64,000 nt of DNA from Clostridia bacterium (GCA_017520825.1 JAFXEX010000014.1:69118-133117), one strand, 5' to 3'. Positions 1-27,880 are shown, numbered from the stretch's first letter. Translations and numbers: made by a program. Notes: generated from the letters alone by a model not told the origin.

Positions 1-1844
1 AGCTTGAGGAAGAAAGGCTTCCTAAGGTGAAAGAGTATACAAAAAAGATAGCTGAAATAAAAGCTATTTTGCCTGATTATGACGAGCTAATTCAAAAGCA
101 AAAGACTTTTGACGATAATAAAGCATTCATTGATAGTAGCGGCGAAAACATTTCTGAAATTGAGAGAGGTATTCAAGCTTTAAGCGATGAAATAATTCTT
201 CTAACCGAAGAGAACAAAACTCTCGAAAAAAACGGCGAAGAAAAGCTGAAACTTGAAGCTGAAAAGCAAAAGCACGAAGAAGGAAGAAACAAACTTGAAG
301 ATTTAGACAAGAATATTGTGATTGCTTTCGACTATCATAAGGTATTCCTTGCTGCCAATGGTGATTATTTGGAGAAGGTCAAAGAGGCAGAAGAATTAGA
401 CTGTGAATACAAGACAATGACAAGGATTTATCTCGAAGCACAAGCAGGAATTTTGGCAGAAACTTTAGAAATAAATAAGCCTTGTCCTGTATGCGGTTCA
501 ACAACACATCCGCAAGTCGCAATTAAACCTGTTGATGTACCTACTAAGGATCAGCTTGATGACCTTCAGGATAAACTTAATATTGCCAATCAAACTGCAA
601 ATGAAGCAAGAACAGAGGCGGGCAAATTAAAGGGTGTGTCAGAAGAAAAAGAGATTACTGTAAAGAAGGATATAGTATTACTTTTGGGTGATGATGTATC
701 ATTTGACGAAGCACGGTCTGTAATTGCATCGAAAATATCTGACATTGATTCTTCGGTTAATGGTTTGAATTCACAGATAAAAGAAGTTCAGGACAAAATT
801 GAACGCAAAAAAGAACTTGATGAGCTTTTACCTGGAAAGAATTCTACTCTCGAAAAATCAAAAGAACAATTAACAGAAATTAAAGATAAGGTAAAAGTAA
901 GAACAGCAGAAAATATAGTTCTGGAAAAACGAATTTCCGAATTGTTGGAAAAGCTTATGTTTAAAACAAAAGCTGATGCGGAAAGCCAAATAACCGCCTT
1001 AGAAGATGAAGCAGAAGCTATTCAAAAAGCTTATGATGACTTGTTAAAAGAAGTGAATGATAACAAGGAAAAGCTTGCGTCACTAAAATCGGCAAAAGAT
1101 GAGATTTTAAAGCGCATTGGCAATGGCACGGATATTGACTTGGATAAAGAAAAAGAAAACAAACAATTTTTCGAAGAAAAGCAAGCTGTGCTTGACACAA
1201 ATTCAAAAATAGTACATAGTCGCAAAACATCTAACAAATCTTCTCTCGATAACATTTTGCAAAAGCTTGATGAAATTAAAATCGTTGAAGAAAAGTGGAC
1301 TTGGATGAAAACACTTTCCAATACTGCTAATGGAAACTTAAGTGGAAAAGAAAAGATAATGCTCGAAACTTATATTCAGATGACTTATTTTGACAGAATT
1401 ATAAATCGTGCCAACACAAGATTTATGGTTATGTCAGGCGGGCAGTATGAATTAAAGAGAAGAAAAGAAGCCGAAAATAACCGAAGTCAAAGTGGCCTTG
1501 AATTAGATGTTATAGACCATTACAACGGAACAGAAAGAAGCGTAAAAACCCTGTCTGGCGGTGAATCGTTTAAGGCATCTCTTTCTCTTGCTCTTGGCCT
1601 TTCCGATGAAATTCAATCATCTGCAGGCGGAATAAAGCTTGATACAATGTTTGTTGACGAAGGATTTGGATCTCTCGATGACGAATCCTTGGCACAAGCA
1701 ATAAAAGCCCTTTCATCGCTTGCTGAAGGAAACAGGCTTGTTGGTATCATTTCGCATGTAAACGAACTTAAAGACAAGATCGATAAACAGATAGTTGTAA
1801 AGAAAGAGAAAACAGGCGGAAGTAATGTTACTATTGTTGTATAA
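1..1844 (+). CDS. sbcC: SbcC/Rad50-family SMC-like ATPase, C-terminal ~610 codons (5' end outside the window)
   Basis: The frame is open from nt 3 through the listed GTG at 27, so the gene is cut by the window edge. It has a long K/E-rich coiled coil with a CPVCGS (CxxC, zinc-hook-like) motif, then the ABC signature LSGGESF, Walker B LDTMFVDEGFGSLD and H-loop GIISHV. Confidence 0.85.
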   Translation, partial: LEEERLPKVKEYTKKIAEIKAILPDYDELIQKQKTFDDNKAFIDSSGENISEIERGIQALSDEIILLTEENKTLEKNGEEKLKLEAEKQKHEEGRNKLEDLDKNIVIAFDYHKVFLAANGDYLEKVKEAEELDCEYKTMTRIYLEAQAGILAETLEINKPCPVCGSTTHPQVAIKPVDVPTKDQLDDLQDKLNIANQTANEARTEAGKLKGVSEEKEITVKKDIVLLLGDDVSFDEARSVIASKISDIDSSVNGLNSQIKEVQDKIERKKELDELLPGKNSTLEKSKEQLTEIKDKVKVRTAENIVLEKRISELLEKLMFKTKADAESQITALEDEAEAIQKAYDDLLKEVNDNKEKLASLKSAKDEILKRIGNGTDIDLDKEKENKQFFEEKQAVLDTNSKIVHSRKTSNKSSLDNILQKLDEIKIVEEKWTWMKTLSNTANGNLSGKEKIMLETYIQMTYFDRIINRANTRFMVMSGGQYELKRRKEAENNRSQSGLELDVIDHYNGTERSVKTLSGGESFKASLSLALGLSDEIQSSAGGIKLDTMFVDEGFGSLDDESLAQAIKALSSLAEGNRLVGIISHVNELKDKIDKQIVVKKEKTGGSNVTIVV

Positions 1845-1929
1845 ATTTTTTCTTGAATATTTAGTGTAATATTTGCAACGTTTTTTCTTTGATATAAGTC
1901 TCACAGTCCGTTTTATAGGACAGTTGATG

Positions 1930-1938
1930 TGATATAAT
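1930..1938 (+). promoter_or_regulatory. Extended -10 element TGaTATAAT upstream of the 1970 gene
   Basis: TGATATAAT was read directly, 32 nt upstream of the ATG at 1970. The -35 region is poor (GTTTTA). Confidence 0.4.
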
Positions 1939-1969
1939 TATATCAACAAAGGAAAGGTGGTAATAGAAT

Positions 1970-2554
1970 ATGGAAACAAAAGGTGAAATCAACATTTCTC
2001 CAAACTACAACAAAGATAGTTATCTTAACTTAAACCTCTCTTTGCAAAGTAGTGAGTCCGATTGGAATATGGCTGTTGCAATTTTGAAAGACAGAATTGA
2101 AGGCAGGTACTTTAATCAAATCGATTTACTTTCAAATGATGTTAATGCAAACGGATTCACTATAATGGCCTTGAATTGTTTGCTCATTGAAACATTGTTT
2201 CAGTTTAGAGATGGTGAAGAAGAAACCCCCCGTCCAAACAACAAGACCTACCCGGCGTTTCTATTACAGGAGTTTTCGTCCGTTTTTAGAGATCAAAAAA
2301 CAGCGAAAAGTTTTTATGCAAATATTCGTTGTGGTATTCTTCACTCTGCTCAAACAAAAAATGAATCGAGACTATCTGATAGAGAAGATGTTGTTGTGAC
2401 TTTTGAAGGAAACACTCTGGTCGTATCTGTAAAAGGCGTATCCTCATTGTTAAAGACGTATTTTGAACATTATTTGCAAAAACTTTCAAATCCAAAAGAA
2501 GTAACCTTGCGCAATAATTTCATAAATAAAATGAAATTTGTGTGCCGAAAGTGA
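1970..2554 (+). CDS. Hypothetical 194-aa protein with a HEPN-like R-x4-H motif (tentative)
   Basis: A GGAAAGGTGG RBS precedes the ATG. The protein contains NIRCGILHSAQ, which has the R-x4-H spacing of HEPN RNases, after a helix carrying an acidic residue (LLIETLFQF). The family call rests on motif spacing only. Confidence 0.6.
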   Translation: METKGEINISPNYNKDSYLNLNLSLQSSESDWNMAVAILKDRIEGRYFNQIDLLSNDVNANGFTIMALNCLLIETLFQFRDGEEETPRPNNKTYPAFLLQEFSSVFRDQKTAKSFYANIRCGILHSAQTKNESRLSDREDVVVTFEGNTLVVSVKGVSSLLKTYFEHYLQKLSNPKEVTLRNNFINKMKFVCRK

Positions 2555-2564
2555 GGAGATAAAC

Positions 2565-2774
2565 ATGTTTGAACCTTGGCAACTGGCAATGATTGATGAT
2601 GCCGGTTATAATGGTATTCGTGACGAGCACATTAACCGTGTATCAGAATCCTTGCTTTCAAGCGATTTAACTGGTATTGACCACAATACATTTGATTATC
2701 ACTGCCACAAATGTGGCATTGATCCAAATAATTTTACTAAACGCGATTTAGAAAAATTGTTCGAAAACATATAA
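2565..2774 (+). CDS. Small hypothetical protein (69 aa)
   Basis: The ORF track starts at 2538. However, GAGGAG lies 6 nt upstream of the ATG at 2565, which is 11 nt after the upstream stop, and the next gene follows 13 nt after this one's stop. The protein contains a CHKC pair. Confidence 0.5.
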   Translation: MFEPWQLAMIDDAGYNGIRDEHINRVSESLLSSDLTGIDHNTFDYHCHKCGIDPNNFTKRDLEKLFENI

Positions 2775-2786
2775 AAGGAGAGCGTT

Positions 2787-4097
2787 ATGAAATCAGTAGA
2801 TACAAAGGTTTACAAAATCACAGAAACTATAAGAGAAAAAGCCAACTTAGCAGATGAATTATACCAAAATAAAGCAAGCAAAGTTCACGAGGCGCTTTCT
2901 GACACTATATATCTTTCGCAAATCAATTCACTAAGACGGATTGTTGCAGATGCATTAAAGGCAGCCGAAGAATTATATTTAACATACGAAGCTCTGGTTC
3001 GTACCTTGGATTCTAAATGCAAAAGCATTATTGACGAGGGCGCTTCAGCAGACGCAGTAAAGGAAGTTTGTGACTTAATTGAATATCTAAACGCCGAATC
3101 ATCTTCTATTGATTGCAATTTTACTTTGTCAATCGAAATGATTGATATGGGTGACCTTGGTGGAATGAGCTTTATTGCCAGTGTTGAAGCTCAAGCAATA
3201 GAAGCTCTTTGGAAATCAAATTATTCTACTATGCCAGAAGTTATAGAGGCCGAAAAACAAAGTAAAATTATTGAAAATAAAGAAAAGGATGAATTAAAGA
3301 AAGCCTTAAAAGAGGTAGAAAAGAAAAAGAAAGAGAACGCAGAGCTTGCTAAAGAAATTGAATTAAAAAACCAAAAAGCAAAAGAGTATATGGATTCAAT
3401 AATACAAGAGTGCAAACAATGCATATCGGATTATAAAAATAGGCTAGAAGAAGAATTAGAGGCACAGATAAGTCAACTTGAAAAAAGCAAAGAAACTGAA
3501 ACTTTGGAAATCAAGAAAAAAATAAGTAAAAAACAAGATGAATTGTCAAACATGGGACTTTTTAACTTTTCACAAAAAAAGATCTTGAAAGACGAAATAA
3601 GAAATTTATCAATTGCTTTAGAAAAACTTAATACTTCAAACATAGTTTCACAAAAAAACAATTACTTCCGTGAATTGATTGACGGGACATTAAAAGATTA
3701 CAAAAAAACTATTGATGAATATTTGTCAAAAAGATTCCCAAAAACTGACGATGAGAAATCTTCAACTGTTGAACTTGAACCTGCTGATATCATTTTACAA
3801 GTCATGGATTCTGCGGATTCACTTATGACTATTAGTGATATCAAACTTGCTGATTATAGAATTCCGGACTCTAATCAAAAAGTTTCAGCCTTTGTTCGCC
3901 AATTGGTTGTAGAAGGTCTGTTAATGCGAAAGGAAATAAAGGAATGTGCATACTTTAAAATAACGCCAAAAGGTAGGTTGAAAATAGCTGAGAAAACTGA
4001 TCCTTTACCTGTAGAAAAATATCGTGAAAACCCAGAGTATGCTAACACTCCTATACCTGAATCACCAAGCGTGATGACAATTTTTAAACAAACATAA
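2787..4097 (+). CDS. 436-aa coiled-coil protein, paralog A (possible C-terminal winged-helix)
   Basis: An AAGGAGA RBS is present. The central region is a highly charged K/E coiled coil. The motif LSNMGLFNFSQKKILKDEIRNL and the C-terminal tail ...NTPIPESPSV are both shared with the 5238 gene. The C-terminal VSAFVRQLVVEGLLMRKE...ITPKGR segment looks wHTH-like. Confidence 0.8.
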   Translation: MKSVDTKVYKITETIREKANLADELYQNKASKVHEALSDTIYLSQINSLRRIVADALKAAEELYLTYEALVRTLDSKCKSIIDEGASADAVKEVCDLIEYLNAESSSIDCNFTLSIEMIDMGDLGGMSFIASVEAQAIEALWKSNYSTMPEVIEAEKQSKIIENKEKDELKKALKEVEKKKKENAELAKEIELKNQKAKEYMDSIIQECKQCISDYKNRLEEELEAQISQLEKSKETETLEIKKKISKKQDELSNMGLFNFSQKKILKDEIRNLSIALEKLNTSNIVSQKNNYFRELIDGTLKDYKKTIDEYLSKRFPKTDDEKSSTVELEPADIILQVMDSADSLMTISDIKLADYRIPDSNQKVSAFVRQLVVEGLLMRKEIKECAYFKITPKGRLKIAEKTDPLPVEKYRENPEYANTPIPESPSVMTIFKQT

Positions 4098-4141
4098 AGT
4101 TATTTGATATTTCTTAGTAGGATTTATAAGGTCATGAGCAA

Positions 4142-4192
4142 ATGGGACTTTTTGGTTACAAGAAACTTATTGATGTGATTTCCAGATTATAA
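4142..4192 (+). other. 16-codon mini-ORF or gene fragment (MGLFGYKKLIDVISRL) resembling the paralog motif
   Basis: It shares atgggacttttt with the 2787 gene at the nucleotide level. Its translation mimics the MGLFNFSQKKILKDEI motif and is bounded by TAA on both sides. It is likely a remnant of a third paralog. Confidence 0.3.
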
Positions 4193-4595
4193 TCAACGCG
4201 TTCCTTTCGGTAAGCCTTTATTTCCTGACTTCCGGCTATCTCGACATTTTTTTACCTATATGATCTGTGTAGTATGCGCAGATACCTATAACAAAAAAAT
4301 GTATTTCTTTGATCAAGAAGGTAAGGAACGAATACTTTGAGTTTGCTCCTTTGCGCAAAGCCGGAACGCAGAAAACACTTAACGGGACAAACCAATAATT
4401 AGGGGGGTGAAGAAATATACTAGGAATATCGTTACTTTGTCAGAGACAGTTCCCTATCATTTCTGAATAATACTTTACAGAAAATTGAACTGGAAGCATC
4501 TGATGACAAGTAGACAGTAAAAATAAAAACCACAATCGGAAGACAAAGAATATAATGCAGTCTAATTAAAAATATGAATTTAAAGGAGAACTATT

Positions 4596-5192
4596 ATGAA
4601 CGAATCAAAATACTTACAACAAACACACTTTTATGTTCCTGACGAATATGTTAGTGCCAAGGCACAGGAGGAAACAGATATAAACTTATCTTCTTTTGCG
4701 GGAGCGAATTTCACCTTTGATATTATTGAGTAACCATTTCATTGTGTAATTGCTTCTATTGAAGGTGCTATTGAGTTTAAGTTATATGTTCGCAGTGAAA
4801 TGGGAGCCTTTCTTGAAAACCCTGATCTCGGAGTGAAATTGTTCCGAGAACCTCGATAAGATGGAAAAGAGTTTGAGGTTACTGCAAATATAGGAAGAAT
4901 TGGAGATGTAGGACAAATTTTTGGTATTTTCCTCAATGTAGTTGGGGGGATAAGTATATTTGCGGAGGAAAAAGAGCTTGTAACTGAACTTTCAAATATT
5001 GACACTGAGTCTGAAGGTTTCCTTATCAAACTCGACGGTGATGAACTTCTGTTTAACAAGGTTGCTGGAAAGGCCCGCCCTGATATGGCTTGCACTACCT
5101 TGTTCGGAGGTGTCCAGATGATGCGCCCTTACCAGGACGAAATTATGGATAGCTGGATGGGCGAGATGATGTCGATTGAAGAAAAAAATTGA
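4596..5192 (+). pseudogene. About 199-codon reading frame interrupted by two in-frame TAA codons (4731, 4857)
   Basis: I translated it by hand. An AAAGGAGA RBS precedes an ATG at 4596, and a single frame runs to TGA at 5190 with TAA at 4731-4733 and 4857-4859. The amino-acid composition looks protein-like on this strand. The opposite-strand ORFs in the track look like antisense artefacts. Confidence 0.5.
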
Positions 5193-5237
5193 ACAGATAG
5201 TACAAAATTTCAAAGCATAAAATCCAGGAGGATAAAA

Positions 5238-6575
5238 ATGAATGCTCAAGAATATTATTCTTATGCGAAAGAAAAAATTTATAATTTTAAGAAAAGGTGG
5301 GAAGCTTTTACCATTGAAGCTCCCAACAAACTTTCTAACTTAATAGCAGAGGGGATTTCGTTTTCAAAAACGCTTGGTATTTCTGAAGATATACATACCG
5401 GAGAAATAAAACTCAAGACTGAGTATGAAATAAATTCAAATACAGATTTTGCTGAAGGGTATATTGGAGTTATAAAGTATCGGGTAGAAAAATATGCAGA
5501 AGAATTAATGGGAATAGTTGAAGATATCGATGTTAATTTATATACATTTGTTTTCGAAGGGCTTGATAACGATTTATTTAATGATTTTGTTGATATTATT
5601 GACGAATGCATCAAATATTTTTCCGATATATGCATAAATATTTCTAGCGGACGAATTGGTACAACTGTTCCTGATTCGGCGATATCAATACAAAAGAAAT
5701 GGGAAAATACTTTTCCTGATGAGGTCAGAAAAAACGAATCTGAAAGATTAGGCATTCCCATTGAAAATCTGGGTAAACATATAAAATACCTTGAAGCAAA
5801 AAAACTATTGAAAAATGCAACAACATCGACTGAGATAAATGATGCCAAGGAGATTTTTATCTTACTTAATGGATATTTAGACTCCTCAGGGCTTGTATCA
5901 TTATGTGATGAAAAAAATTTAGAGTTAGAGAAAAACAAAGTAGAAAAAATCATTAATATGAAGCAAAGAGCAGCGGAAGGAAGACGAAAAAGAGAGGAAG
6001 AATTACGGCAAAAGAGGGAGAAGGAAGAAAAGCAAGAGGCTGACTATTATGCAGTTCAAAACGAATGTGAACGCAATCTTGCTGAATTTAAAAATCAGTT
6101 AGAAGTACAGATTGAAATTGAAATTAACATTGCAAAAAAAGAAAACGAAGCGCTGTTGTTAGAAGCAAAAGAAGAATTTACAACAATGGAAAAAGAACTG
6201 TCATCACTTGGATTCTTTAAGTTTTCTGACAAGAATAGGCTAAAGAATGAAATCAACAATTTGCAAAACAAAATAGACTTTCTTTCTTCAGAGCAACAAG
6301 TTGCAGAACTCGAAAAACATTTAAAATCAAAAGCTATCAAGGTACAAAAGAAATATAAAAAACAACTTGAAGATTTTTTTGATGAGCTTTTTCCGTTTGA
6401 AAAGCAGTTTGACACTGCCAAAAAAGCTTATATTGATTCTAAAGGATATTATGACGAGAAGCGTGCTGAAGAATATGCATACCGAAAGGTTATAACCAAA
6501 GAATTTGAAAGAGCACCGGGAATGGAAAATGCAACAGTGCCTTCCATACCTAACGTCAAGGACGCATTAAAATAA
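5238..6575 (+). CDS. 445-aa coiled-coil protein, paralog B
   Basis: A CAGGAGGA RBS is present. It has a charged coiled coil (RRKREEELRQKREKEEKQE). The motif LSSLGFFKFSDKNRLKNEINNL and the tail NATVPSIPNV match the 2787 gene. Confidence 0.8.
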   Translation: MNAQEYYSYAKEKIYNFKKRWEAFTIEAPNKLSNLIAEGISFSKTLGISEDIHTGEIKLKTEYEINSNTDFAEGYIGVIKYRVEKYAEELMGIVEDIDVNLYTFVFEGLDNDLFNDFVDIIDECIKYFSDICINISSGRIGTTVPDSAISIQKKWENTFPDEVRKNESERLGIPIENLGKHIKYLEAKKLLKNATTSTEINDAKEIFILLNGYLDSSGLVSLCDEKNLELEKNKVEKIINMKQRAAEGRRKREEELRQKREKEEKQEADYYAVQNECERNLAEFKNQLEVQIEIEINIAKKENEALLLEAKEEFTTMEKELSSLGFFKFSDKNRLKNEINNLQNKIDFLSSEQQVAELEKHLKSKAIKVQKKYKKQLEDFFDELFPFEKQFDTAKKAYIDSKGYYDEKRAEEYAYRKVITKEFERAPGMENATVPSIPNVKDALK

Positions 6576-6632
6576 TCTTTTAAGAATTAGAAGGATATTA
6601 GAACATAAATAAAATGAAATAAACAGAAGGAG

Positions 6633-7718
6633 GTGGAAAAGTTGAAATACATAATTAACGATAAAAAATATCGTTTCAAATCGGCATTTGATACTGAAAC
6701 GGGTGCATATGTCCGTACCGGCGTGCTTGATGAAAACGACAAAGATACAGGTGTTGATCCCTTTATGGCATCCTATCCTCATCTAATTGACGTTGGCATT
6801 ATGGGTCACTGTATTCACGGTAAGACAGGACTTTGCGCCAAAGCAGGTATCGGATGCTATCAAAGCGGTATGCTTGTGGAACAACCTAATATGTCGGTTG
6901 AGGATTTCAGGTGGATTGCAGAACAATCTAAAGGAAAATGCAACCAATTTGCTCTCGGTGGCAGAGGTGATCCTGATCAGCACGAGCATTTTGAGGAAAT
7001 ACTAAAAATATGCCGAGAAAATGTGCTTGTACCCAATTTCACAACATCCGGTTATGGTATGACACCTGAAATTGCTAAACTGTGCAAGCAATATTGCGGT
7101 GCTGTGGCGGTAAGCTGGTATAGAAACGACTATACTTTGAAAGCTATTCAGATACTTCTTGATGCCGGTGTTAAAACCAACATTCATTATGTGCTCGGTA
7201 AAAATAGCATTGACGAAGCGATCGAACGTTTACAAAAGAATGACTTCCCACAAGGAATAAATGCAGTGATTTTTTTATTACATAAACCCGCAGGACAAGG
7301 CACGAAGGCAAATATGTTAGAGGCAATTGACCCAAGAGTTGCGGAATTTTTTGCACAGGTAGACAAGCAGCACCCCTTTAAGGTTGGTATGGATAGTTGT
7401 AATGTTCCCGGCGCCATCAATTTCTGCAAATCCATTTTGCCTGAATCCCTTGATACTTGCGAAGGTGGAAGATACAGCTGCTATATAGGTGCTGATATGA
7501 TTATGGTTCCTTGCAGTTTCGACCAAGAGAAGCGTTATGAGGTTTCACTGCGTAAAATGTCAATTACAGAAGGGTGGAATAGTGAACCCTTTGAGCGATT
7601 TCGCAACAAAATGCGTGGTGCTTGTCCTGATTGTGAAAAGAAAGAACTTTGTATGGGTGGATGCCCACTAATGCCCGAAATTGTTTTTTGTACAAGCAAA
7701 AGCAGAATAATATTATAA
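6633..7718 (+). CDS. Radical-SAM-fold / SPASM-domain protein lacking the canonical CX3CX2C motif
   Basis: The C-terminus CPDCEKKELCMGGC matches the SPASM signature C-x2-C-x5-C-x3-C, preceded by further Cys residues. GGRGDP and NFTTSGYG resemble the rSAM GGE and TNG motifs. The N-terminal Cys triad is GHCIHGKTGLCAKAGIGC (C-x7-C-x6-C). The start may instead be the TTG at 6642, because the GTG at 6633 lies inside the GGAGGTG SD. Confidence 0.8.
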   Translation: MEKLKYIINDKKYRFKSAFDTETGAYVRTGVLDENDKDTGVDPFMASYPHLIDVGIMGHCIHGKTGLCAKAGIGCYQSGMLVEQPNMSVEDFRWIAEQSKGKCNQFALGGRGDPDQHEHFEEILKICRENVLVPNFTTSGYGMTPEIAKLCKQYCGAVAVSWYRNDYTLKAIQILLDAGVKTNIHYVLGKNSIDEAIERLQKNDFPQGINAVIFLLHKPAGQGTKANMLEAIDPRVAEFFAQVDKQHPFKVGMDSCNVPGAINFCKSILPESLDTCEGGRYSCYIGADMIMVPCSFDQEKRYEVSLRKMSITEGWNSEPFERFRNKMRGACPDCEKKELCMGGCPLMPEIVFCTSKSRIIL

Positions 7719-7738
7719 GATGAAAGGAAGATTTAATT

Positions 7739-8464
7739 ATGAAAATTAGAACAGATTTTGTAACCAATTCAAGCTCCAGCAGCTTTTGTGTTGAGGTTCA
7801 AGTCAAAACAACAAGCGGTGCAAAATTCAAGACAAAGCTTTATGTTGGGGATGAAGATGGTATACTTGAAAGCGCAAATGTTATTGATTGTACTCCTACT
7901 GAAGTCCTCGAATGCGATAACATAAAGTCTTTGGCAGAACTTTTATATGAAGCGGTCGTACCGGAAGAAATAGACGAAGCACCAGAAGATTATTTTAAAA
8001 AAAGAGTTAAAAATTTCGTTAATAAAATTGGTAAAAATATATCAGATTTTAGCGACATAGAAACAATTACGTTTAGTGGGGAATGGGAAGCTTGGGGGCA
8101 GGCATCAAGTTGTTTTGGCGCAAATTTGGAATTTTATGCGAAAGAATTACCGGAGCTGGCAAGGAGAGTATGTGAATCTGATGGCGAAGAAAAAGAAAAA
8201 GCTAAAATTGATTTACAAAACTATTTGTCCAATTATGCTGGAAAAATCAAAGGAGATTGGGGCGGTAAATTCCCATCCGGTATGCTTGGAATGAACAAAG
8301 GAGCTATTGTGTGGGACAAAATTGCTAACAACATCGAGGAATTCGCCCAGATGGTTCTTGATGGTAACCTGCCTAATGATGACTATGCAGAGGAAACTGT
8401 TGTTATAAATATGAATACAAAGGAAATTACACAAAAAGCTGAGTATATTTTAAGAAACAATTAA
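7739..8464 (+). CDS. Acidic 241-aa hypothetical protein with N-terminal FVTNSSSSSFCVE motif
   Basis: An AAAGGAAG RBS is present, and the gene starts 20 nt after the rSAM stop. The protein is D/E-rich and contains no recognisable catalytic motif. Confidence 0.7.
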   Translation: MKIRTDFVTNSSSSSFCVEVQVKTTSGAKFKTKLYVGDEDGILESANVIDCTPTEVLECDNIKSLAELLYEAVVPEEIDEAPEDYFKKRVKNFVNKIGKNISDFSDIETITFSGEWEAWGQASSCFGANLEFYAKELPELARRVCESDGEEKEKAKIDLQNYLSNYAGKIKGDWGGKFPSGMLGMNKGAIVWDKIANNIEEFAQMVLDGNLPNDDYAEETVVINMNTKEITQKAEYILRNN

Positions 8465-8499
8465 ATTCTAAAATAAATATTAATAAAGGAGAAGTTGAT

Positions 8500-9459
8500 A
8501 TGTTATTAGCTGACAGCTTAGTAGAGGCATTGAGTTATACTGACTTGTATAATAAATTATCTGGAGTTAAGGTTTTTTGCGAAGAATCCGTTCGTGATGA
8601 GGCAAAGGGGTGTTTTTTAACCGAATTTGAAAAAGAGTGGCAAAATGCGTTAGAAAAAGCCGAAGAGGAATACGGAGAACTTGAAGAGGATGAGGAAAAT
8701 ATTCCATGTGAAATAATTGATAAAAATTATGGTTTTTTCATATCAACCGATGGTTTAGATATTCGACATTCTTATGGTGATTATTTCGCCCCTGATTATG
8801 GCATTGTCGCTTTTAATCAGGCACTAAAAAACTTAAAAAGTACTTATTCTCAAATTGAGTATGAAGGATATTTAGGATTTTTGTATTCTGATGTGTCTGC
8901 GGGAGAAGTGTATCAATGGGAGTTGTCTTCTAAAGAGAAAGATGACAAAAAAATATATGATTTTGTTGGTGAGATTTTAGGTGAAGTTTTTGCATCAGAC
9001 TTATATATCCCCGAAGAGCCACTGGATGCTGATGGATTGAATTTTGTAATAACAGGAAAATTGAATCATTTTGAAAACAGAGAAGAAATATCTGAATATA
9101 TTGAAGATTTAGGAGGAAGTGTTACAAGCGGTATCTCTAAAAACACTAATTATTTAATCAATAATGATATAAATTCCACTTCGTCAAAAAATATTAAAGC
9201 AACTGAGTTGGGTGTTCCTATTATTAGCGAAAGTGAATTTATAGCAATGTTTGGTGATCCAAGTGAATTTGATATAGAAGAATCAGACTTTTGGAGAAGT
9301 TTAGAAGAGAGTATTACGGGATATAATGATGATTCTGCAGAAGTAACGGAGAATCTATATGCATATTCAAATTGGATAAAAAAAGCTGATTTTGATAGGG
9401 CTATAAGATCAATTGCTCACATTGTAGGTGAAGAGGAAGATAACGATTGGGATGAATAG
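8500..9459 (+). CDS. Acidic protein with a BRCT domain (LigA-C-terminus-like)
   Basis: An AAGGAGAAG RBS is present. The segment GLNFVITGKLNHFENREEISEYIEDLGGSVTSGISKNTNYLI...ATELGVPIISESEFIAMF follows the bacterial BRCT pattern of NAD-ligase C-termini. The flanks are very acidic. Confidence 0.75.
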   Translation: MLLADSLVEALSYTDLYNKLSGVKVFCEESVRDEAKGCFLTEFEKEWQNALEKAEEEYGELEEDEENIPCEIIDKNYGFFISTDGLDIRHSYGDYFAPDYGIVAFNQALKNLKSTYSQIEYEGYLGFLYSDVSAGEVYQWELSSKEKDDKKIYDFVGEILGEVFASDLYIPEEPLDADGLNFVITGKLNHFENREEISEYIEDLGGSVTSGISKNTNYLINNDINSTSSKNIKATELGVPIISESEFIAMFGDPSEFDIEESDFWRSLEESITGYNDDSAEVTENLYAYSNWIKKADFDRAIRSIAHIVGEEEDNDWDE

Positions 9460-9540
9460 AAATATGTTCTAACATAATAATCTTATGAGTCCGTTGATTA
9501 TATCGATGAAATAAAGCACCACAAAATGAACATAGAAAAA

Positions 9541-9579
9541 CCTACCGCCTAAGCCGTTATGACTTAGGTGGTAGGTTTT
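9541..9579. terminator. Bidirectional rho-independent terminator at the island/tRNA junction
   Basis: The stem CCTACCGCCTAAG / CTTAGGTGGTAGG (one G.U pair) is flanked by AAAAA on the 5' side and TTTT on the 3' side. Confidence 0.7.
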
Positions 9580-9632
9580 CTGTAAATGCAAAGACATTCT
9601 TCACAATGTGCAAGGTTCGTCTTTGCGTGTTT

Positions 9633-9707
9633 TGGTGACCCGTACGGGAATCGAACCCATGATTCCACCTTGAGAGGGTGGCGTCTTAGCCGCTTGACCA
9701 ACAGGCC
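9633..9707 (-). tRNA. tRNA-Glu (anticodon CUC), CCA encoded
   Basis: The reverse complement GGCCTGTTGGTCAAGCGGCTAAGACGCCACCCTCTCAAGGTGGAATCATGGGTTCGATTCCCGTACGGGTCACCA folds as a cloverleaf. It has a 7-bp acceptor stem, anticodon stem CCACC/GGTGG, loop CTCTCAA and a GGTTCGATTCC T-loop. Confidence 0.9.
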
Positions 9708-9804
9708 TTATAGTGTGCCCTTCAGCACGCTATATATTATCATAAAATTTGTGAATTGTCAAGAGGGAATTTGAGAAAAGTTCTAATGTAGGAACCTTAT
9801 ATTT

Positions 9805-10145
9805 ATAAGGCGGGAGTTTTGGAGGGAAAATCGTCAATTGCGAAGCCGTCTCCGACTCACTACACCCTCACACACTGTTCGGGTTTCGTTCCCTGTATGG
9901 CTTGAATTTTTGCTCGATTCGCTAATTCGCTACTCGGCAAAAATCCTCCGCACAGCCGTACAAAGGTACGCCAGTGCGAGCAAGGGGCGAAGAAAATGAA
10001 ATTTTCACAGATGGGAGAAAGCGAAGCTTTCTACATTGGAAAACTTGCAACGCACGTGATGTGTGTCGCACCATACTTTAGTGAGAAACCTTGCAGAAAA
10101 TCATAAAACCTTTTCATTTTCGGTTTTCACCCAAAAGACACGCCA
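9805..10145 (+). mobile_element. L element copy 1 (MITE-like), carrying a nested N element
   Basis: It shares the ...GGCGGGAGTTTTGGAGGGAAAATCG... left end, the GAAGAAAATGAAATTTTCACAGATGG.AGAAAGCGAAGCTTTCTAC core and the TTTTCATTTTCGGTTTTCACCCAAAAGACACGCC right end with other copies. It ends 1 nt from the hemW stop codon. Confidence 0.8.
9850..9954 (+). repeat. N element copy 1 (~105 bp) inserted inside L copy 1
   Basis: It interrupts GAAGCCGT|AGCCGTAC of the L consensus. It is near-identical, in reverse complement, to 29547-29651. Confidence 0.8.
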
Positions 10146-11261
10146 TCAAAGAGCTTCAAAAATTTTCACAATTACAGAATTTGAAACGAAGAAGCCCTTA
10201 TGGGTAAGGGAAAGAACGCCGTTGTCATATTTGCAAAGCCCTGCGTCTACAAGCTCTCTTGCCGTTATTTCAAATTGGTGGGTAATTCTTACGCCGTATT
10301 CCTTTTCAAGCCGTTGAAGGTTCAGACCGTCACTCAGACGGAGGGACAGAAAGATAAACTCCTCGGCTCTGTCCTCGGGGGTATTGGTGTAGCTGTCAAG
10401 GCGCCTTGCCTCGTTACAAAAGGCTGAAATATCCGAGGGCATAGAATATCGCACGCCTTCAAAATAGGAATGAGCTGACGCACCTATCCCTATATATTCC
10501 TCTGCCTGCCAATACTTCATATTGTGTCGGGAACGGAAGCCGTCTTTTGCAAAATTTGATATTTCATAATGCTCGAAGCCTGCCTGCGAAAGCCTTTCGC
10601 AGGCCGAAAAATACATCTCTGCTTCAACGTCCTCGTCGGGAAGAAATAGATTTTCACCACGCCTTTGCTTTACGCCGAAAACGGTCTTGTCCTCTATGCT
10701 CAATGCATACGTGGAAATATGCTGTACTCCCAATGATAGGGCAGTGTCAAGCCCCTTGGTAAAGCTGTCAAGGGTCTGACGCGGGAGGGCGAACATAAGG
10801 TCTATTGAAATATTATCAAAGCCAGCCTCTTGCGCTCTTTTTACAGTGTCAACGGCATCTTGGGCAGTGTGTCCTCTGCCAAGCTCCTTAAGCTCGGTGT
10901 CCGAAAAGCTCTGAACACCAAGGCTGAGTCGGTTAATTCCTGCCGATTTAAAGGCTTTCAGCTTTTCGCCCTCGTTTACCGACATGGGATTTGCTTCAAG
11001 GGTTATTTCGGCGTTTTTGTCCACGTCAAAGGAAGTGTAGACGGCATCAAGCAGTTTTTCAAGCTCGCTCCCACTCATCAGGGAGGGGGTGCCACCACCG
11101 AAATAGACGGTATCAACAGATATTCCTTTATAAGCCTTTATTTCACGGCAGAGAGCGTCAATATACTCGCCCTTGCGTGAGCCGTCAGCCAGAGAATAAA
11201 AGTCACAGTAATTGCACTTCTTACGGCAAAAGGGGAAGTGGATATAGAGTCCCTTATTCAT
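10146..11261 (-). CDS. hemW: Radical SAM heme chaperone HemW / coproporphyrinogen-III-oxidase-like
   Basis: It contains the canonical [13 protein letters not shown] (CX3CX2C) motif and lies downstream of lepA, as in Bacillus. I place the start at the ATG at 11261 (MNKGLYIHF...), which overlaps the lepA stop (ATGAATAA). The longer listed ORF runs antisense-free through the lepA 3' end. Confidence 0.85.
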
Positions 11262-13062
11262 CGTCAAATTTAAGCACTGCCATAAACGCCTCGTGGGGCA
11301 CTTCAACGGTACCCAGTGAGCGCATCTTCTTTTTACCCTCTTTTTGCTTTTCAAGAAGCTTCTTCTTACGGGTAATGTCACCACCGTAGCACTTGGCAAG
11401 CACGTCTTTTCTCATTGCCTTTACGGTCTCTCTTGCAATAACCTTACCACCGATTGCTGCCTGAACGGGAATTTCAAAGAGCTGACGGGGAATGTTTTCC
11501 TTTAATTTTTCAACGATTTTACGGGCTCTGCCGTATGCCTTTTCCGTATGGACGATAAAGGAGAGAGCGTCCACCATGCTTCCGTTGAGAAGAATGTCAA
11601 GCTTTACAAGGCTGGACTTTTCATAGCCTGCAAGCTCGTAGTCAAGGGAAGCGTAGCCCTTGGTGCGAGATTTGAGAGCGTCGAAAAAGTCGTATATGAT
11701 TTCGTTAAGGGGAAGTGCGTAGTGAAGCTCGGCACGGTCCGAGGTAATGTACTTCATATCCTTGAATACACCTCGTCTCTCCTGACAAAGCTCCATTATA
11801 GTGCCTACGTAGTCAACGGGGGTGAAGATGGTCGCTTTTACGATAGGCTCGCAGGTTTCCTCTGCCTCGTCACCTGTAGGGAAGTTTTGTGGGTTGTCGA
11901 TGTATTTGACCTCGCCGTTCTTCATAACGATTTTATAAATAACGCCGGGTGCCGTGGTAATAAGGTCCAGATTGAACTCACGCTCAAGTCTGTCCTGAAT
12001 AACCTCCATATGCAGAAGTCCGAGAAATCCACATCTGAAGCCAAAGCCCAGAGCTATTGAGCTTTCTGCCTCAAACATAAGGGCAGCGTCGTTGAGCTGA
12101 AGCTTTTCAAGAGCGTCTCTCAAATCGCCGTATCTTGCGCCGTCGGCAGGGTAGATGCCACTGTAAACCATGGGGAGAGCCTTTTTGTAGCCGGGGAAGG
12201 CTTCCTCGGTTTGATTTTCTGCAAGGGTTACGGTGTCGCCAACGTCGGTTTCGGAAAGTGATTTTATGCTGGCTGTGACGTATGCAACCTCACCTGCCAT
12301 AACGCAGTCACGCTTTTCAAGACCGAAGGGGCGAAGATGTCCAACCTCCACCACGTCGAATTCTGCGCCCGTGTTCATCATACGGATTCTGTCTCCTGCC
12401 GAAAGCTTGCCGTCAAAAATTCTCACGTAAACTATAACGCCTCGGTAGGAGTCGTAAACGGCATCGAAGATAAGAGCCTTCAAGGGCTTGGTTATATCAG
12501 CCTTGGGGGCAGGAATATCCCTTACTACTGCCTTTAAAACGTCCTCTACGTTAAGTCCCGTCTTTGCTGAAATGCAGGGCGCATCCTCGGCAGGTATGCC
12601 GATAACGTCCTCGATTTCCTGCTTCACCTTGTCGGGCTGGGCAGAGGGCAGGTCGATTTTATTGATAACGGGGATAATTTCAAGGTCGTTGTCAAGGGCG
12701 AGGTAGGTGTTGGCAAGGGTTTGCGCTTCAATTCCCTGTGACGCGTCAACCACCAGCAGAGCGCCCTCGCAGGCAGACAGTGAGCGTGACACCTCGTAGT
12801 TAAAGTCAACGTGACCGGGGGTGTCGATAAGGTTGAGGGAATATACCTCACCGTCGTCAGCCGTATATTCAAGCTTAACGGCGCGCGCCTTGATGGTGAT
12901 GCCTCTCTCTCTTTCAAGCTCCATATTGTCCAGAAGCTGTTCCTCCATCTCACGATGGCTGACGGTACCCGTAGTCTCTAAAAGACGGTCTGCCAGAGTG
13001 CTTTTACCGTGGTCAATATGTGCGATTATTGAAAAATTCCTGATGTTTTCGGGTTTGTACAT
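11254..13062 (-). CDS. lepA: Elongation factor 4 (LepA)
   Basis: It has the [16 protein letters not shown]1 motif, DTPGHVDF, and a full-length 602-aa LepA-type sequence. Confidence 0.95.
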
Positions 13063-13101
13063 CTATTTTCCTCTATATAAATAAAATTAATTTTAAAATT
13101 C

Positions 13102-13129
13102 AAGGGGTGTCGCAAAAGCGTCACCCCTT
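13102..13129. terminator. Stem-loop terminator between the ferredoxin gene and lepA
   Basis: AAGGGGTGTCGC-AAAA-GCGTCACCCCTT is flanked by T/A runs on both sides. Confidence 0.6.
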
Positions 13130-13151
13130 TTATTTTCGGACGTGCCGAAAA

Positions 13152-13337
13152 TTACTCAGCCTTGGGAGCTTCAACAGGGCAAACGCCTGCGCAAGTACCG
13201 CAATCGATGCACTGATCTGCATCAATAACAGCCTTTCCGTCACCTTCGCTGATACATTCAACGGGGCACTCGCCGATGCAAGCACCGCAGTCGATGCAAT
13301 CGTCTGTGATTTTGTAAGCCATTGTAGTTACCTCCAT
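13152..13337 (-). CDS. 2x[4Fe-4S] ferredoxin (61 aa)
   Basis: It has two CxxCxxCxxxCP motifs (CIDCGACIGECP and CIDCGTCAGVCP). Confidence 0.9.
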   Translation of the reverse strand: MEVTTMAYKITDDCIDCGACIGECPVECISEGDGKAVIDADQCIDCGTCAGVCPVEAPKAE

Positions 13338-13422
13338 TTCTCTGTTTTCACACTATTGTAGCACATAAGTTTAATAATATAAATAGATTTTTGAAAAATT
13401 TTTCAATTTTTTCAAAAATTTA

Positions 13423-14337
13423 TTATTCAATTTCCTCGTCAAGCTCGTTTTCCTCCTGAGGAGAGGGCTTCTTGGCGCTGAGCACCTTAACCTGTTCACG
13501 AATGAACTGAACGGGGGAAGCGTCCTTGTTGGAGTCGAGACTGACCTTTATAATGCCTGCAAGGGGATTTGCATCAACAACCATACCCTTGCCCGAGGGT
13601 GTAGAAACGATAGAGCCGACGCGAGGCGTTTTTCTGATTTCCTCCTCGTAGGTGTCGTTTTCATATCTGAGACAGCACATAAGTCTTCCACAGGTGCCCG
13701 ATATTTTGGCAGAGTTAAGGCTGAGTCCCTGCTCCTTTGCCATCTTTATTGAAACCTGGTCGAAGTCGGACAGGAAGGAGTGGCAGCAGAATTCTCTTCC
13801 ACAGATACCAAGTCCACCAAGCTGCTTGGCTTCGTCACGAACACCTATCTGACGCAACTCAATTCTGGTTTTGAATACGGCTGCAAGGTCCTTTACAAAT
13901 TCTCTGAAATCAACTCTGCCCTCAGAGGTGAAATAGAAGAGGAGCTTTGAGTTGTCGAAGGTCATTTCGGCGTCAACCAAGTCCATTTCAAGCTTGTGCT
14001 GAACGCACTTTTCCTTAAAAATCGCCTTTGCGCGCTCGGCAACAGCCTCGTTTTCCACAAGCCTTCTGGTGTCGTCCTCGGTAGCCTTGCGCAATACCTT
14101 CTTAAGAGGCAGAACCACCTCGGAGGCAGGCACCGTCTTGTTGGCAACCAGCACGTGTCCGTATTCAACGCCACGTGAGGTTTCAACGATTGCCTTGTCG
14201 CCTACGGTAAAGGTAAGGGAGTTGGGGTCAAAATAATAGATTTTTCCCACTTCCTTAAATCTTATGCCGATTATTTCGTAGCTTTCCTTTACTTCTGCTA
14301 CTTCTGTATTCTCTACGTTTACGTTAGTGTTTTCCAT
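13423..14337 (-). CDS. ricT: PSP1-domain protein (RicT/YaaT family)
   Basis: It has a PSP1 C-terminal Cys-rich region (GICGREFCCHSF, GTCGRLMCCLRYE) and lies directly downstream of holB, as in B. subtilis. The start is set at MENTNVNV (14337) because the longer ORF overlaps holB. Confidence 0.8.
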   Translation of the reverse strand: MENTNVNVENTEVAEVKESYEIIGIRFKEVGKIYYFDPNSLTFTVGDKAIVETSRGVEYGHVLVANKTVPASEVVLPLKKVLRKATEDDTRRLVENEAVAERAKAIFKEKCVQHKLEMDLVDAEMTFDNSKLLFYFTSEGRVDFREFVKDLAAVFKTRIELRQIGVRDEAKQLGGLGICGREFCCHSFLSDFDQVSIKMAKEQGLSLNSAKISGTCGRLMCCLRYENDTYEEEIRKTPRVGSIVSTPSGKGMVVDANPLAGIIKVSLDSNKDASPVQFIREQVKVLSAKKPSPQEENELDEEIE

Positions 14338-14363
14338 TTGATTTATATCCTTTTTGAAAAAAT

Positions 14364-15320
14364 TCAAGCAAAATCCCCTGCAAGAGACATATTGACGCTG
14401 GAAAGAGCCAGCGATACGTTTATTTTCGACACGTCTCTCATTATACGACACACGGTTTCGTATGCCGAAAACAGCCTTTGTCTGTCCAGCCCCTGAGACA
14501 GCTCTTCAAGAAGGCTTCTGTCTGCAAAGAACATGGTTTTCTCGGTATATCCAACCGAAAAGGTCAATATATCACGAAGCGCCAGGGAAAAATAATTCAT
14601 TACAGAAAAGAGATAATTTCTGTCGTTTGAAACCGAAGGTGAAATAACCGAGGATAGCCTTGAAAAGCTTGCTCCCTCGTTCACTGCCGAAAAATAGCTT
14701 TTTACAAGGGTAACTGCCTTACGGCTTTTTTCGTCGTCGAGAAAGGCGAACGCCTTACCCAGAGCGCCGTCGGCTATAAGCACTGCTTCCTCAATGAGAG
14801 AGTGGGCGTCGGGATAACGCTTTTTAAGCTCCTCTCTTACGAAGGAATCGGGAAACTTTTCGGTTTTAAGGGTAACTGCCCTTGATTTAAGAGTTGAAAG
14901 GAGAAGATTTCTGTTGGTAACCAGCAGGAAAAACATCACGTTTTTCGGTGGCTCTTCAAATATCTGAAGCAGGGCGTTTTGCGCAGGGGGTACCATCTGT
15001 TGTGCGTTTTCTATTATAAAAATCTTCTTGTCGCACTCGGCAGGCTTTATATAAGCCTGAGAGATAATCTCTCTTATCTGGTCGATTTTTATGGTGGACG
15101 AGCCTTCCTCGCATCTCAATTCATATACGTCCTGATGAACGCCTGCCGTTATCTTGGGGGCGTGCTCTTTTCCTGCAAGGATTGAGGCTATTGCACGGGC
15201 GAGGGTAAGTCTTCCACTTCCCACAGCCCCCTCTATAATGTAGGCGTGGCTGAAGCGTCCCGTGTCGGCCACTGCTTCAAAGGCAGAAAGCACCGTCTTA
15301 TTGCCTAAAATAAAGCTCAT
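14364..15320 (-). CDS. holB: DNA polymerase III subunit delta'
   Basis: It shows the AAA+ clamp-loader pattern (HAYIIEGAVGSGRLTLA, ...NALLQIFEEPP) and the conserved darA-holB-ricT context. Confidence 0.85.
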   Translation of the reverse strand: MSFILGNKTVLSAFEAVADTGRFSHAYIIEGAVGSGRLTLARAIASILAGKEHAPKITAGVHQDVYELRCEEGSSTIKIDQIREIISQAYIKPAECDKKIFIIENAQQMVPPAQNALLQIFEEPPKNVMFFLLVTNRNLLLSTLKSRAVTLKTEKFPDSFVREELKKRYPDAHSLIEEAVLIADGALGKAFAFLDDEKSRKAVTLVKSYFSAVNEGASFSRLSSVISPSVSNDRNYLFSVMNYFSLALRDILTFSVGYTEKTMFFADRSLLEELSQGLDRQRLFSAYETVCRIMRDVSKINVSLALSSVNMSLAGDFA

Positions 15321-15646
15321 TATATTCTCTCAAATCTTTCAATGTTTGCAACGAATACCGTGGCGCCACCTATGGTTATCTGTATGGGCGCAACGCTTCC
15401 TCCAAGACTTGCGTCTGCCACTACGTCGGCAGAGGAGGAGTAGGTTCTCTTTTTGCTGTACTTTTTGATTATGTCGATAACCTTGTCAACCTCTTCATCT
15501 TCAACTGCCGTAATGAAGGTGTGGTTGCCTTTTTTGAGAAATCCACCTGTGGACGCCATTTTGGTTACGTGTATACCTGCCTTTATAAGCTGTGAGGATA
15601 CGATGGCGCCGTCATCGTTGTTGACGATAGCAAATATGAGTTTCAT
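15320..15646 (-). CDS. darA: PII-like cyclic-di-AMP receptor (DarA/PstA, YaaQ family)
   Basis: MKLIFAIV...VTKMASTGGFLKKGNHTF...GGATVFV closely follows the B. subtilis YaaQ pattern. Confidence 0.85.
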   Translation of the reverse strand: MKLIFAIVNNDDGAIVSSQLIKAGIHVTKMASTGGFLKKGNHTFITAVEDEEVDKVIDIIKKYSKKRTYSSSADVVADASLGGSVAPIQITIGGATVFVANIERFERI

Positions 15647-15707
15647 TTTTCTCTCCTGTATGTAAGTTTATGTAGGGGAGAATTTACAGAGTAAATCCTC
15701 CTATTGA

Positions 15708-17384: not shown

Positions 17385-17404
17385 TTCTGTCCTTTCTGAA
17401 AGGC

Positions 17405-18484: not shown

Positions 18485-18495
18485 TTTCGCCCTCG

Positions 18496-19095: not shown

Positions 19096-19097
19096 TA

Positions 19098-19622: not shown

Positions 19623-19802
19623 TTTTTTAAAACCGTATTCCAAAAAATATCTGAAATTTATATTACGTCTCATTATATAATATAAGACTTCATTATATAA
19701 TAACATAATTATTGTGAAAAGTCAACAGAAAACCCTTTAGGACAGACAAGAAAGCCCCTGCCTCCCAAGGTGGGGGCAGGGGTGGGCTTAAAAGCTTTTT
19801 CT

Positions 19803-27870: not shown

Positions 27871-27880
27871 CATTAAAAAA

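Follow-up and report, generated by a model that had tools for sequence, protein, structure and literature searches.

Genomic islands and integrative mobilizable elements associated with tRNA genes provide the closest described setting for the locus considered here, an AT-rich block adjoining the 3' end of tRNA-Glu(CUC) in a 64,000-nt stretch of DNA from Clostridia bacterium, an uncultured gut organism (GCA_017520825.1 JAFXEX010000014.1:69118-133117). This whole stretch is hereafter termed the window, and all block positions are counted in it. Like such islands, the block has a border at a tRNA 3' end, a foreign base composition, no counterpart at the syntenic site of a related species and cargo of the type found on integrase-carrying elements. 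Unlike them, it is without an integrase, a direct repeat of the tRNA end or excision machinery, and the gene nearest the tRNA is the last of the cargo genes rather than an integrase. Because the integrase and the distal att repeat, two defining features, are both missing, the block is a variant and not a member of the classical integrase-type tRNA islands. The presence of an AT-rich island beside tRNA-Glu, proposed in a sequence-only reading of the window, is confirmed. The block is likely to be horizontally acquired, now immobile cargo, probably with a function related to conflict or to DNA ends; horizontal acquisition, taken on its own, can be held with good confidence.

Defence islands and hotspots likewise hold variable AT-rich accessory cargo between conserved core genes, and relatives of the cargo are found elsewhere beside AbiE, the Druantia DruE helicase and WYL regulators. 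They differ from the block in that no complete system recognised by PADLOC is present here. The leading genes of the block, sbcD and sbcC, resemble SbcCD (Mre11-Rad50) in their canonical domains, zinc hook and 4-bp gene overlap. Unlike the usual pair, they fall below the equivalog cut-offs, lie on DNA that was probably acquired and are followed by an unusual set of genes, and in sister loci a non-homologous Mre11/Rad50-like pair occupies the same position.

The block also encodes a radical S-adenosylmethionine (radical-SAM) enzyme with a SPASM domain, followed by a protein with an invariant N-terminal tag. In the recently described HXS antiphage system (HxsABCD), a SPASM-type radical-SAM enzyme (HxsB/HxsC) matures a protein effector, HxsA, for phage defence; the system is defined by a pair of radical-SAM enzymes together with HxsD and an effector that contains His-Xaa-Ser repeats (PMC13128918). 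A SPASM radical-SAM gene beside proteins with a short Ser-rich motif is a feature that the block shares with the anSME-sulfatase systems and with HXS. By the above definition the block is not an HXS system, as it has a single radical-SAM gene and its translations contain no HxS repeats. It differs from radical-SAM maturases more widely in that one invariant 16-residue tag at the extreme N-terminus is carried by otherwise unrelated proteins of 80-665 amino acids (aa), and in that the tagged genes often lie in tandem arrays of 2-6 genes on phage-like contigs.

The internal proteins of phage T4 share an N-terminal capsid-targeting sequence and, like the products of the tag arrays, are diverse small phage proteins with a short conserved N-terminus. 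The tag differs in travelling with a radical-SAM enzyme, in having no evident protease site and in occurring also in bacterial islands and on a plasmid, where the stretches examined hold no capsid genes.

Viewed as a genomic island, the region is unremarkable. It offers a clean case of apparently acquired DNA at a tRNA flank without integration machinery, and indicates that the expectation of an integrase at the far end of tRNA-flanking islands can fail. The main interest lies in the cargo, in which a DNA-end nuclease, a radical-SAM enzyme and a family of proteins with an N-terminal tag are linked. The pairing of enzyme and tag spans Clostridia, their phage-like contigs and an alphaproteobacterial plasmid, and looks undescribed.

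Composition and extent of the block

The G+C content is 0.350 over positions 1-9580 and 0.467 over 9633-64000. In 1-kb segments it ranges between 0.32 and 0.39 throughout the first 9.6 kb and between approximately 0.42 and 0.52 to the right. The lowest value for any other 9.58-kb segment is 0.442 (mean 0.467, standard deviation 0.009), the block lying approximately 13 standard deviations below, and a two-segment maximum-likelihood fit places the change point at 9540. The contrast is strongest at third codon positions, where the eight block genes have a G+C content (GC3) of 0.22-0.35, compared with 0.49-0.56 in nine core genes of the flank. It extends to synonymous codon choice, block and core differing in their use of TTA (0.30 vs 0.02), CCC (0.18 vs 0.67), ACC (0.14 vs 0.52) and AAA (0.70 vs 0.34). 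The sharp break that the sequence-only reading had placed near 9.58-9.63 kb is therefore borne out by G+C content, GC3 and codon usage alike.

At the right border, a hairpin and the core gene for tRNA-Glu(CUC) follow the final block gene, which ends at 9459 (Table 1). The hairpin is flanked by an A5 run and a T4 run and is therefore interpreted as a bidirectional terminator. Its stability is well beyond that of shuffled sequences (z = -7.3 and -7.9 on the two strands; 0 of 200 shuffles equally good). The 3' end of the tRNA gene points to the block, its neighbours HemW and LepA are conserved in the sister species locus L005, and an Rfam scan of positions 1-14000 yielded the tRNA as its sole match. 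The junction had been described as a bidirectional terminator followed by the 3' (CCA) end of a minus-strand tRNA-Glu. This description stands apart from the CCA, which is not encoded, the gene reading ...GGTCACCA then AAAC.

The left end was recovered through an exact-protein look-up of the block protein p194, leading to independent assemblies (L001-L003) that extend leftward and differ from the window by one mismatch in 6.9 kb. The block starts approximately 2,391 bp left of window position 1, just past the start codon of a PHP-family gene of normal G+C content, and the left compositional change point lies approximately 2,430 bp before position 1. The DNA to the left of the window comprises the remainder of sbcC, sbcD and a 330-bp AT-rich spacer, then two divergent genes of normal composition that encode a PHP-family metallohydrolase (335 aa) and a GDSL lipase. 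The block totals approximately 12.0 kb, of which the window shows the rightmost 9.6 kb.

Neither an integrase nor a recombinase or transposase was detected when the open reading frames (ORFs) in these 12 kb were searched against Pfam, NCBIfam and PHROG, and a tblastn search for remnants, made with five integrases or recombinases of related elements, gave nothing better than E 0.23. The statement that positions 1-9632 contain no integrase accordingly holds. L002 and L003, in which sbcD-sbcC run directly into the PHP-family gene, refute the further suggestion that a recombination module would lie at the far end. A repeat of the tRNA-Glu 3' end, which had been put forward as a sign of attL/attR sites, was not found at the left border: the tRNA region matches the left flank over 9 bp at most, as expected by chance, and comparison of border against border gave no direct repeats above 8 bp. 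When the block was examined as a prophage, PHROG matches were confined to SbcC, SbcD, the ligase-type BRCT and one family of unknown function, with no structural genes. The conserved SbcC ATPase tail was the sole match in a blastn search of the block against isolate phages and plasmids. Lacking an integrase, a recombinase and an att duplication, the block is unable to excise or move alone.

Occupancy of the site and route of acquisition

A HemW scan using one genome per species yielded 80 loci, of which L005 was the closest and the only one with local synteny kept (LepA 94% and HemW 64% identity at the amino acid level, core DNA 77% at the nucleotide level). In L005 the genes run LepA-HemW-tRNA-Glu(CUC)-PHP-x-GDSL, x standing for an additional gene of approximately 1 kb. 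Homology with the window stops at 9631 on the tRNA side and resumes at the PHP start codon, and in place of the block L005 has an unrelated 0.74-kb segment that holds a single small gene and a terminator of its own. Comparison with related genomes, the check proposed with the sequence-only reading, thus shows the block to be absent from the syntenic site of L005 with synteny otherwise kept. As the interval holds different low-GC content in L005, the site is variable in both lineages. The small gene of L005 (approximately 11300-11850, minus strand, 0.30-0.38 G+C) looks like a lipoprotein gene, judging by a signal-peptide-like start and a Cys residue.

The block is present in all same-species assemblies that span a junction. 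The left junction is reproduced in L002 and L003, the right junction in L086 and L090, and an NCBI metagenome-assembled genome holding P0121 and P0187 also reproduces the junctions; the junction-spanning assemblies, which derive from different samples, are 99.98-100% identical to the window. A metagenomic mis-assembly fusing two organisms at a common tRNA sequence is very unlikely because each junction recurs in several assemblies from different samples, even if the sequence is metagenome-derived and several assemblies break in or by the tRNA. Exact-protein look-ups with LepA, HemW and the BRCT protein returned, in every case, a context that carries the block or breaks at its borders, and a metagenome scan for empty sites using the PHP flank protein gave one distant match only. 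Among the sampled assemblies the block is near-identical, with a single nucleotide polymorphism at 4477 (A in the window, G in five others) that lies ahead of the pseudogene in a stretch where no ORF was found. As to the recent arrival suggested in the sequence-only reading, the base composition of the block is unameliorated, but the block is near-identical across these assemblies and already holds a pseudogene.

That the block is native and vertically inherited, its odd composition being due to Lys/Glu-rich coiled coils or local mutation bias and its absence from the sister to loss or replacement there, is unlikely. GC3, the least protein-dependent measure, is halved in all eight genes, those for enzymes included, and the two borders are abrupt and fall where homology to L005 ends. 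Vertical inheritance would agree with the fixation and near-invariance of the block in the sampled assemblies of the species and with its lack of mobility genes and att sites, and the L005 interval is not truly empty, another low-GC gene being present there. SbcCD is normally a housekeeping complex, and close relatives of SbcD are widespread in related Clostridia; against this, cargo homologues are found in different contexts in each genome examined, often by integrases, relaxases and phage genes, and the intergenic repeat families of the genome itself are missing from the block.

Horizontal acquisition is the preferred reading, and either of two routes could have led to it. The block may have entered site-specifically and lost its integrase later, or it may have replaced the earlier interval by way of homology in the flanks. 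By the first, which is the more likely history, an integrative or prophage-like element from a lower-GC (approximately 35-40%) pool of gut Clostridia would have brought the block to the tRNA flank, with the recombination module and distal att site deleted afterwards. Relatives of SbcCD make such a pool a plausible source. In L176, SbcD (89% identical) and SbcC (77% identical) are encoded by an integrase-relaxase-NikA-TnpV element with AbiE, the locus having a G+C content of 34.5%, in line with that of the block, and other SbcD/SbcC relatives occupy ordinary chromosomal contexts of 38-40% G+C genomes. By the second route, homologous recombination through the conserved flanks would have replaced the interval, with the same outcome.

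Carried further, the second route becomes a recombination hotspot at which cargo is swapped in via the tRNA-Glu/hemW and PHP/GDSL flanks after transformation, transduction or conjugation, with a site-specific integrase never involved. This reading is possible but doubtful. It would accommodate the lack of an integrase and att sites, the different low-GC content of the L005 interval and the position of the borders exactly at the ends of two flanking core genes, yet only two occupants of the site were found, polymorphism within the species was not seen, and L097 has the same cargo module delivered by an integrase at a tRNA. A precedent is offered by the core-gene-flanked hotspots with variable defence cargo described in Pseudomonas (PMC10250203). 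In one metagenome the block forms a separate 12,079-bp scaffold (window -2396 to 9682) and the core scaffold stops at 9628, the 55-bp overlap of the two falling within the tRNA. A break of this kind is typical of a branching assembly graph and would fit co-existing variants at a hotspot, but it is a hint only, since assembly breaks at tRNA genes are also common for trivial reasons.

Radical-SAM enzyme and N-terminal tag

The radical-SAM enzyme of the block matched the Pfam SPASM model PF13186 at 28.1 bits (cut-off 21.5) and TIGR04085 at 26.3 bits, just under the cut-off of 27. In an alignment of five sequences (A2), the SPASM residues Cys253, 273, 291, 328, 331 and 337 are invariant, as are C57 and C72. 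The radical-SAM cluster motif is C-x7-C-x6-C in the block enzyme and the canonical CxxxCxxC in a 37%-identical Agrobacterium homologue. The Pfam Radical_SAM model does not match the block enzyme, yet it is listed for some close homologues. The enzyme is very widespread: 4,493 homologous clusters were retrieved, with identities of 84-93% among the matches listed, whereas HemW and the PHP protein share only 64-66% identity with their L005 orthologues. Assignment to a subfamily was attempted by Foldseek with a structural model of low confidence (predicted local distance difference test, pLDDT, 57); it returned only generic radical-SAM folds (viperin, anSME, CteB, SuiB, PqqE), and no subfamily could be assigned. 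The enzyme gene has a G+C content of 0.41 and the remaining block 0.32-0.36. In L107, the radical-SAM gene and everything downstream of it (8914-20738) have approximately 0.41-0.46, and the upstream genes (1-8900) have 0.49-0.59. The gene seems to keep its own base composition from host to host.

The gene following that of the enzyme encodes p241. Its tag, whose first 14 residues are MKIRTDFVTNSSSS, is invariant at 13 of 14 positions in 39/39 sequences, with K2 present in at least 90% (alignment A1); beyond the tag, the same sequences are 27-57% identical. An AlphaFold2 model of p241 has a pLDDT of 89.8, the tag being its only disordered part, and gave no PDB or BFVD match with E below 0.03. 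Some p241 homologues (P0133, P0175) have a BRCT domain fused at the C-terminus, which links p241 to the neighbouring gene p319. Over 16 residues the tag follows the pattern M-K-[IVFL]-R-x-D-[FY]-V-T-N-S-S-S-S-S-[FY], and it also heads unrelated proteins encoded next to the enzyme, among them LRR_5 proteins (458-665 aa) and small ones (80-260 aa). On the Agrobacterium plasmid, a 131-aa ORF directly upstream of the 37%-identical enzyme starts MKIKLDFVSNSSSTSF. On phage-like contigs the enzyme gene is succeeded by a tandem run of 2-6 tagged genes, the nearest of which often begins 3-50 bp past the enzyme's stop codon.

A census of the tag was made with one regular expression over 74 enzyme loci (1.34 Mb), control loci (1.36 Mb) and the 64-kb window. 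Tagged ORFs numbered 173 and were present in 68 of the 74 enzyme loci (1-6 per locus, median length 145 aa), whereas the 1.36 Mb of control loci contained none and the window contained one, p241 itself. Enzyme and tag are genomically associated. No model in Pfam, NCBIfam, PHROG or PADLOC matched p241, the small tagged proteins or p69, and searches of the literature for the tag sequence, and for radical-SAM enzymes with SbcCD, HEPN and BRCT, returned nothing relevant.

Variants of the pairing were also noted. In one large group of phage-like IMG/VR contigs (L116, L117, L110), position 6 of the tag is Gly instead of Asp (MKLRIGFVTNSSSSSF, MKIRKGFVTNSSSSSF), and the variant genes lie approximately 3.7-5 kb downstream of the enzyme, which is itself flanked by a tandem family of ~95-aa proteins starting MK.GQKY.V.SW. 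In L176, a DUF6273/LRR_5 protein beside SbcCD (14482-16332) starts MIGFILKIAIDLKNG, which corresponds to the post-tag sequence of its relatives with the tag missing, and no radical-SAM gene is present in the 10 kb examined around it; joint loss of tag and enzyme is possible in this single case. Radical-SAM homologues of KP15-like Klebsiella phages (25% identity) were considered as members of the pairing and rejected, no tagged proteins being found nearby.

The contexts of the enzyme differ between all genomes examined. In L093-L096 the module lies next to nusB/xseA with WYL, HIRAN, RNase_T and LRR_5 proteins, a tyrosine integrase and a serine recombinase. In L097 a tRNA-Lys and an integrase are followed by WYL/HTH/RNase_T genes, a homologue of p69, the enzyme gene and a gene for a tagged protein. 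The module of L100 lies within a siphovirus-like prophage, and on the Agrobacterium plasmid the enzyme gene is beside a SMEK-domain protein and an integrase. The enzyme is also carried by 69 IMG/VR contigs, many of them 90-250 kb in length; its neighbours there, as far as inspection of ORF N-termini by eye can tell, are genes of replication and nucleotide metabolism. The companions of the enzyme in bacterial islands and on the Agrobacterium plasmid are DNA-end proteins (Mre11/Rad50-type pairs, BRCT, RNase T), together with WYL regulators or defence genes.

The cargo forms a coherent and not a random set of genes, its architecture being repeated in L175 and, more loosely, in L107. L175 encodes a Mre11-like protein, a Rad50-like protein, a ~190-aa protein, p69 (71% identity), a zinc ribbon, the enzyme (91%) and a homologue of p241 (55%). 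L107 encodes a WYL regulator, Mre11-like and Rad50-like proteins, the enzyme and a p241 homologue, together with a homologue of the p319 N-terminal domain and a Druantia DruE helicase beside the module. The Mre11/Rad50-like pairs of L175 and L107 are mutually homologous. What recurs is the role and not a particular orthologue.

The likeliest function of the cargo, by analogy, would combine a modified tag with a role in conflict or at DNA ends. The radical-SAM enzyme would recognise the flexible N-terminal tag of its partner protein or proteins and modify it post-translationally, as might be expected because SPASM enzymes act on adjacent peptide or protein substrates. The matured proteins may then work with proteins that bind or process DNA ends, either against phages and mobile DNA, in defence or counter-defence, or in the handling of DNA breaks. 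A docking or targeting signal is an equally open reading of the tag. Were modification to prove true, it would represent a new way to arm or address an effector family in phage-host conflicts and a new kind of post-translational step used by mobile elements. Only tentatively can the pairing be put forward as an undescribed, phylum-spanning protein-maturation system of the mobilome, consisting of a SPASM radical-SAM enzyme and proteins that share nothing but a disordered N-terminal tag.

Several observations weigh against the block being acquired cargo of this function. Site-specific integration is not supported, there being no integrase, recombinase remnant or att repeat in the block or at its borders, and no block-less strain was found among the same-species assemblies spanning a junction. 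The sole near-empty site, that of L005, belongs to a fairly distant genome (HemW 64% aa) and is itself low in G+C with a different gene, and deletion or replacement in the L005 lineage is therefore possible. Relatives of SbcD (78-89% identity) are very common in related Clostridia, in chromosomal as well as mobile settings (L177, L180), and the SbcCD pair may consequently be a housekeeping gene set carried along. No homology was detected between the SbcCD of the block and the Mre11/Rad50-like pairs of L175 and L107, and PADLOC recognises no complete known defence system in the block.

Individual genes and repeats of the window

The block consists of ten co-oriented plus-strand genes, tightly spaced (10-125 bp) save for one stretch of 1.1 kb, and ends at a single strong terminator. 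Positions of its genes and of the features to its right are collected in Table 1.

Table 1. Features of the AT-rich block and of the adjoining core DNA, in window coordinates
Feature	Position	Strand	Remarks
sbcD, 379 aa	left of window	+	overlaps sbcC by 4 bp; from L001-L003
sbcC, C-terminal 605 codons	1-1844	+	full gene 922 aa, begins 924 bp left of window
p194	1970-2554	+	large unannotated family; invariant R-x4-H, HEPN-like
p69	2565-2774	+	small conserved protein travelling with the radical-SAM module
p436	2787-4097	+	coiled-coil protein, paralogue of p445
Pseudogene or split gene, ~198 codons	4596-5192	+	in-frame TAA stops at 4731-4733 and 4857-4859
p445	5238-6575	+	coiled-coil protein, paralogue of p436
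Radical-SAM/SPASM enzyme, 358 aa	6642-7718	+	SPASM domain, conserved Cys pattern
p241, tagged partner protein	7739-8464	+	starts MKIRTDFVTNSSSSSF; invariant N-terminal tag
p319	8500-9459	+	unknown N-terminal domain; LigA-type BRCT at residues 179-250
Bidirectional intrinsic terminator hairpin	9540-9578	both	closes block; dG -29.4 / -29.0 kcal/mol
tRNA-Glu(CUC)	9633-9707	minus	ARAGORN; Rfam tRNA 58.6 bits; core gene, right border of block
MITE-like interspersed repeat, ~230-335 bp	9815-10149, 29796-30025, 53718-53950		conserved ends
Second intergenic repeat family, ~40-100 nt	23431-23502, 27810-27881, 29672-29743, 38246-38317		
Second intergenic repeat family, further copies	46794-46865, 51386-51427, 58501-58572, 61215-61286		
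Repeated 140-260-nt segments (families D1, D2, D8, D10)	48316-48564, 51085-51344, 54792-55057, 57920-58233, 63948-63987		

SbcD matched TIGR00619 at 161 bits (cut-off 77.65) and has metallophosphoesterase and SbcD_C domains. In SbcC an AAA_23 head is combined with a coiled coil, a zinc hook and a Walker B motif; the part within the window matched Pfam SbcC_Walker_B at 40.8 bits and contains a CPVC zinc-hook motif in translation, and the full-length protein (from L002) matched NCBIfam sbcc_Staph at 5e-98 and TIGR00618 at 2e-72. The pair belongs by these features to SbcCD, with the NCBIfam equivalog cut-offs not reached. Contigs labelled 'Bacteriophage sp.' in GenBank were considered as evidence of a phage origin of SbcCD and set aside; they are unverified, have 61% G+C and approximately 50% aa identity, and are most likely bacterial.

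The p194 family comprises 1,123 representative clusters at E<=1e-3, and R42, R46, R120 and H125 (R120-x4-H125) are invariant in 38 sequences. No match to p194 was found in Pfam, NCBIfam, PADLOC or PDB, and its placement in a known HEPN family gained no support, as no HEPN Pfam model or PDB relative matches. Homologues of p69 (46-71% identity) lie upstream of the radical-SAM gene or beside SbcCD in L093-L097, L175 and L176. The coiled-coil proteins p436 and p445 are 28% identical over 144 aa (BLASTP, E 4e-15) and have a common LSxxGxFxFSxK motif; library searches gave no family match for p436. The BRCT of p319 was identified by Pfam (3.5e-11) and by the PADLOC candidate PDC-S48 (1e-11), and its N-terminal domain resembles a 243-aa protein in L107 (28% identity, E ~2e-13). 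PADLOC 2.0 reported no full defence system in the block and weak single matches only: mad3 at 3e-9 and LmuB at 3e-7 (both to SbcC), and PDC-S48 (the BRCT just mentioned).

The 1.1-kb gap at 4098-5237 was examined as a non-coding RNA or repeat, and no similarity to the sequences compared was found; a pseudogene fits best. The pseudogene matched no Pfam or Rfam model, its two stop codons recur unchanged in each of the other five assemblies covering this part, and the 498 bp ahead of it (4098-4595) contain no ORF of at least 60 aa.

Several families of interspersed intergenic repeats are spread over 9.8-64 kb. The sequence-only reading had described the island as free of them, and this proved correct: apart from low-complexity AT matches none was found in 1-9632, the nearest copy being that at 9815-10149. 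The latter belongs to a family resembling miniature inverted-repeat transposable elements (MITE-like), with ends TTTGGAGG.AAAATCGT... and ...TTTTCATTTTCGGTTTTAACCCAAAAGACACGCC. The copy has a 104-bp insertion and accounts for a hemW-tRNA spacer of 439 bp, compared with 69 bp in L005. The second family, with seven or eight copies and none inside the block, is built of an inner palindrome, AAATTTGCCAA.GGCAAATT or AAATTTCGCA..GCGAAATT, with short tandem units of the ATTGTGCATTGTG type after it.

Three 1-kb segments of the core are low in G+C (0.36-0.40; 53001-54000, 58001-59000 and 61001-62000). They coincide with repeat-rich intergenic DNA and are not gene-sized islands. The D1, D2, D8 and D10 segments recur every ~3 kb and may be upstream regions common to a series of paralogous genes. 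A 42-nt unit that recurs at multiples of 69 nt within 56027-57550 may reflect a gene for a repeat-domain protein. A segmental duplication with a period of ~2.1 kb and 86-94% identity (27911-28739 vs 30028-30862; 29271-29413 vs 31400-31542) suggests tandem paralogous core genes.

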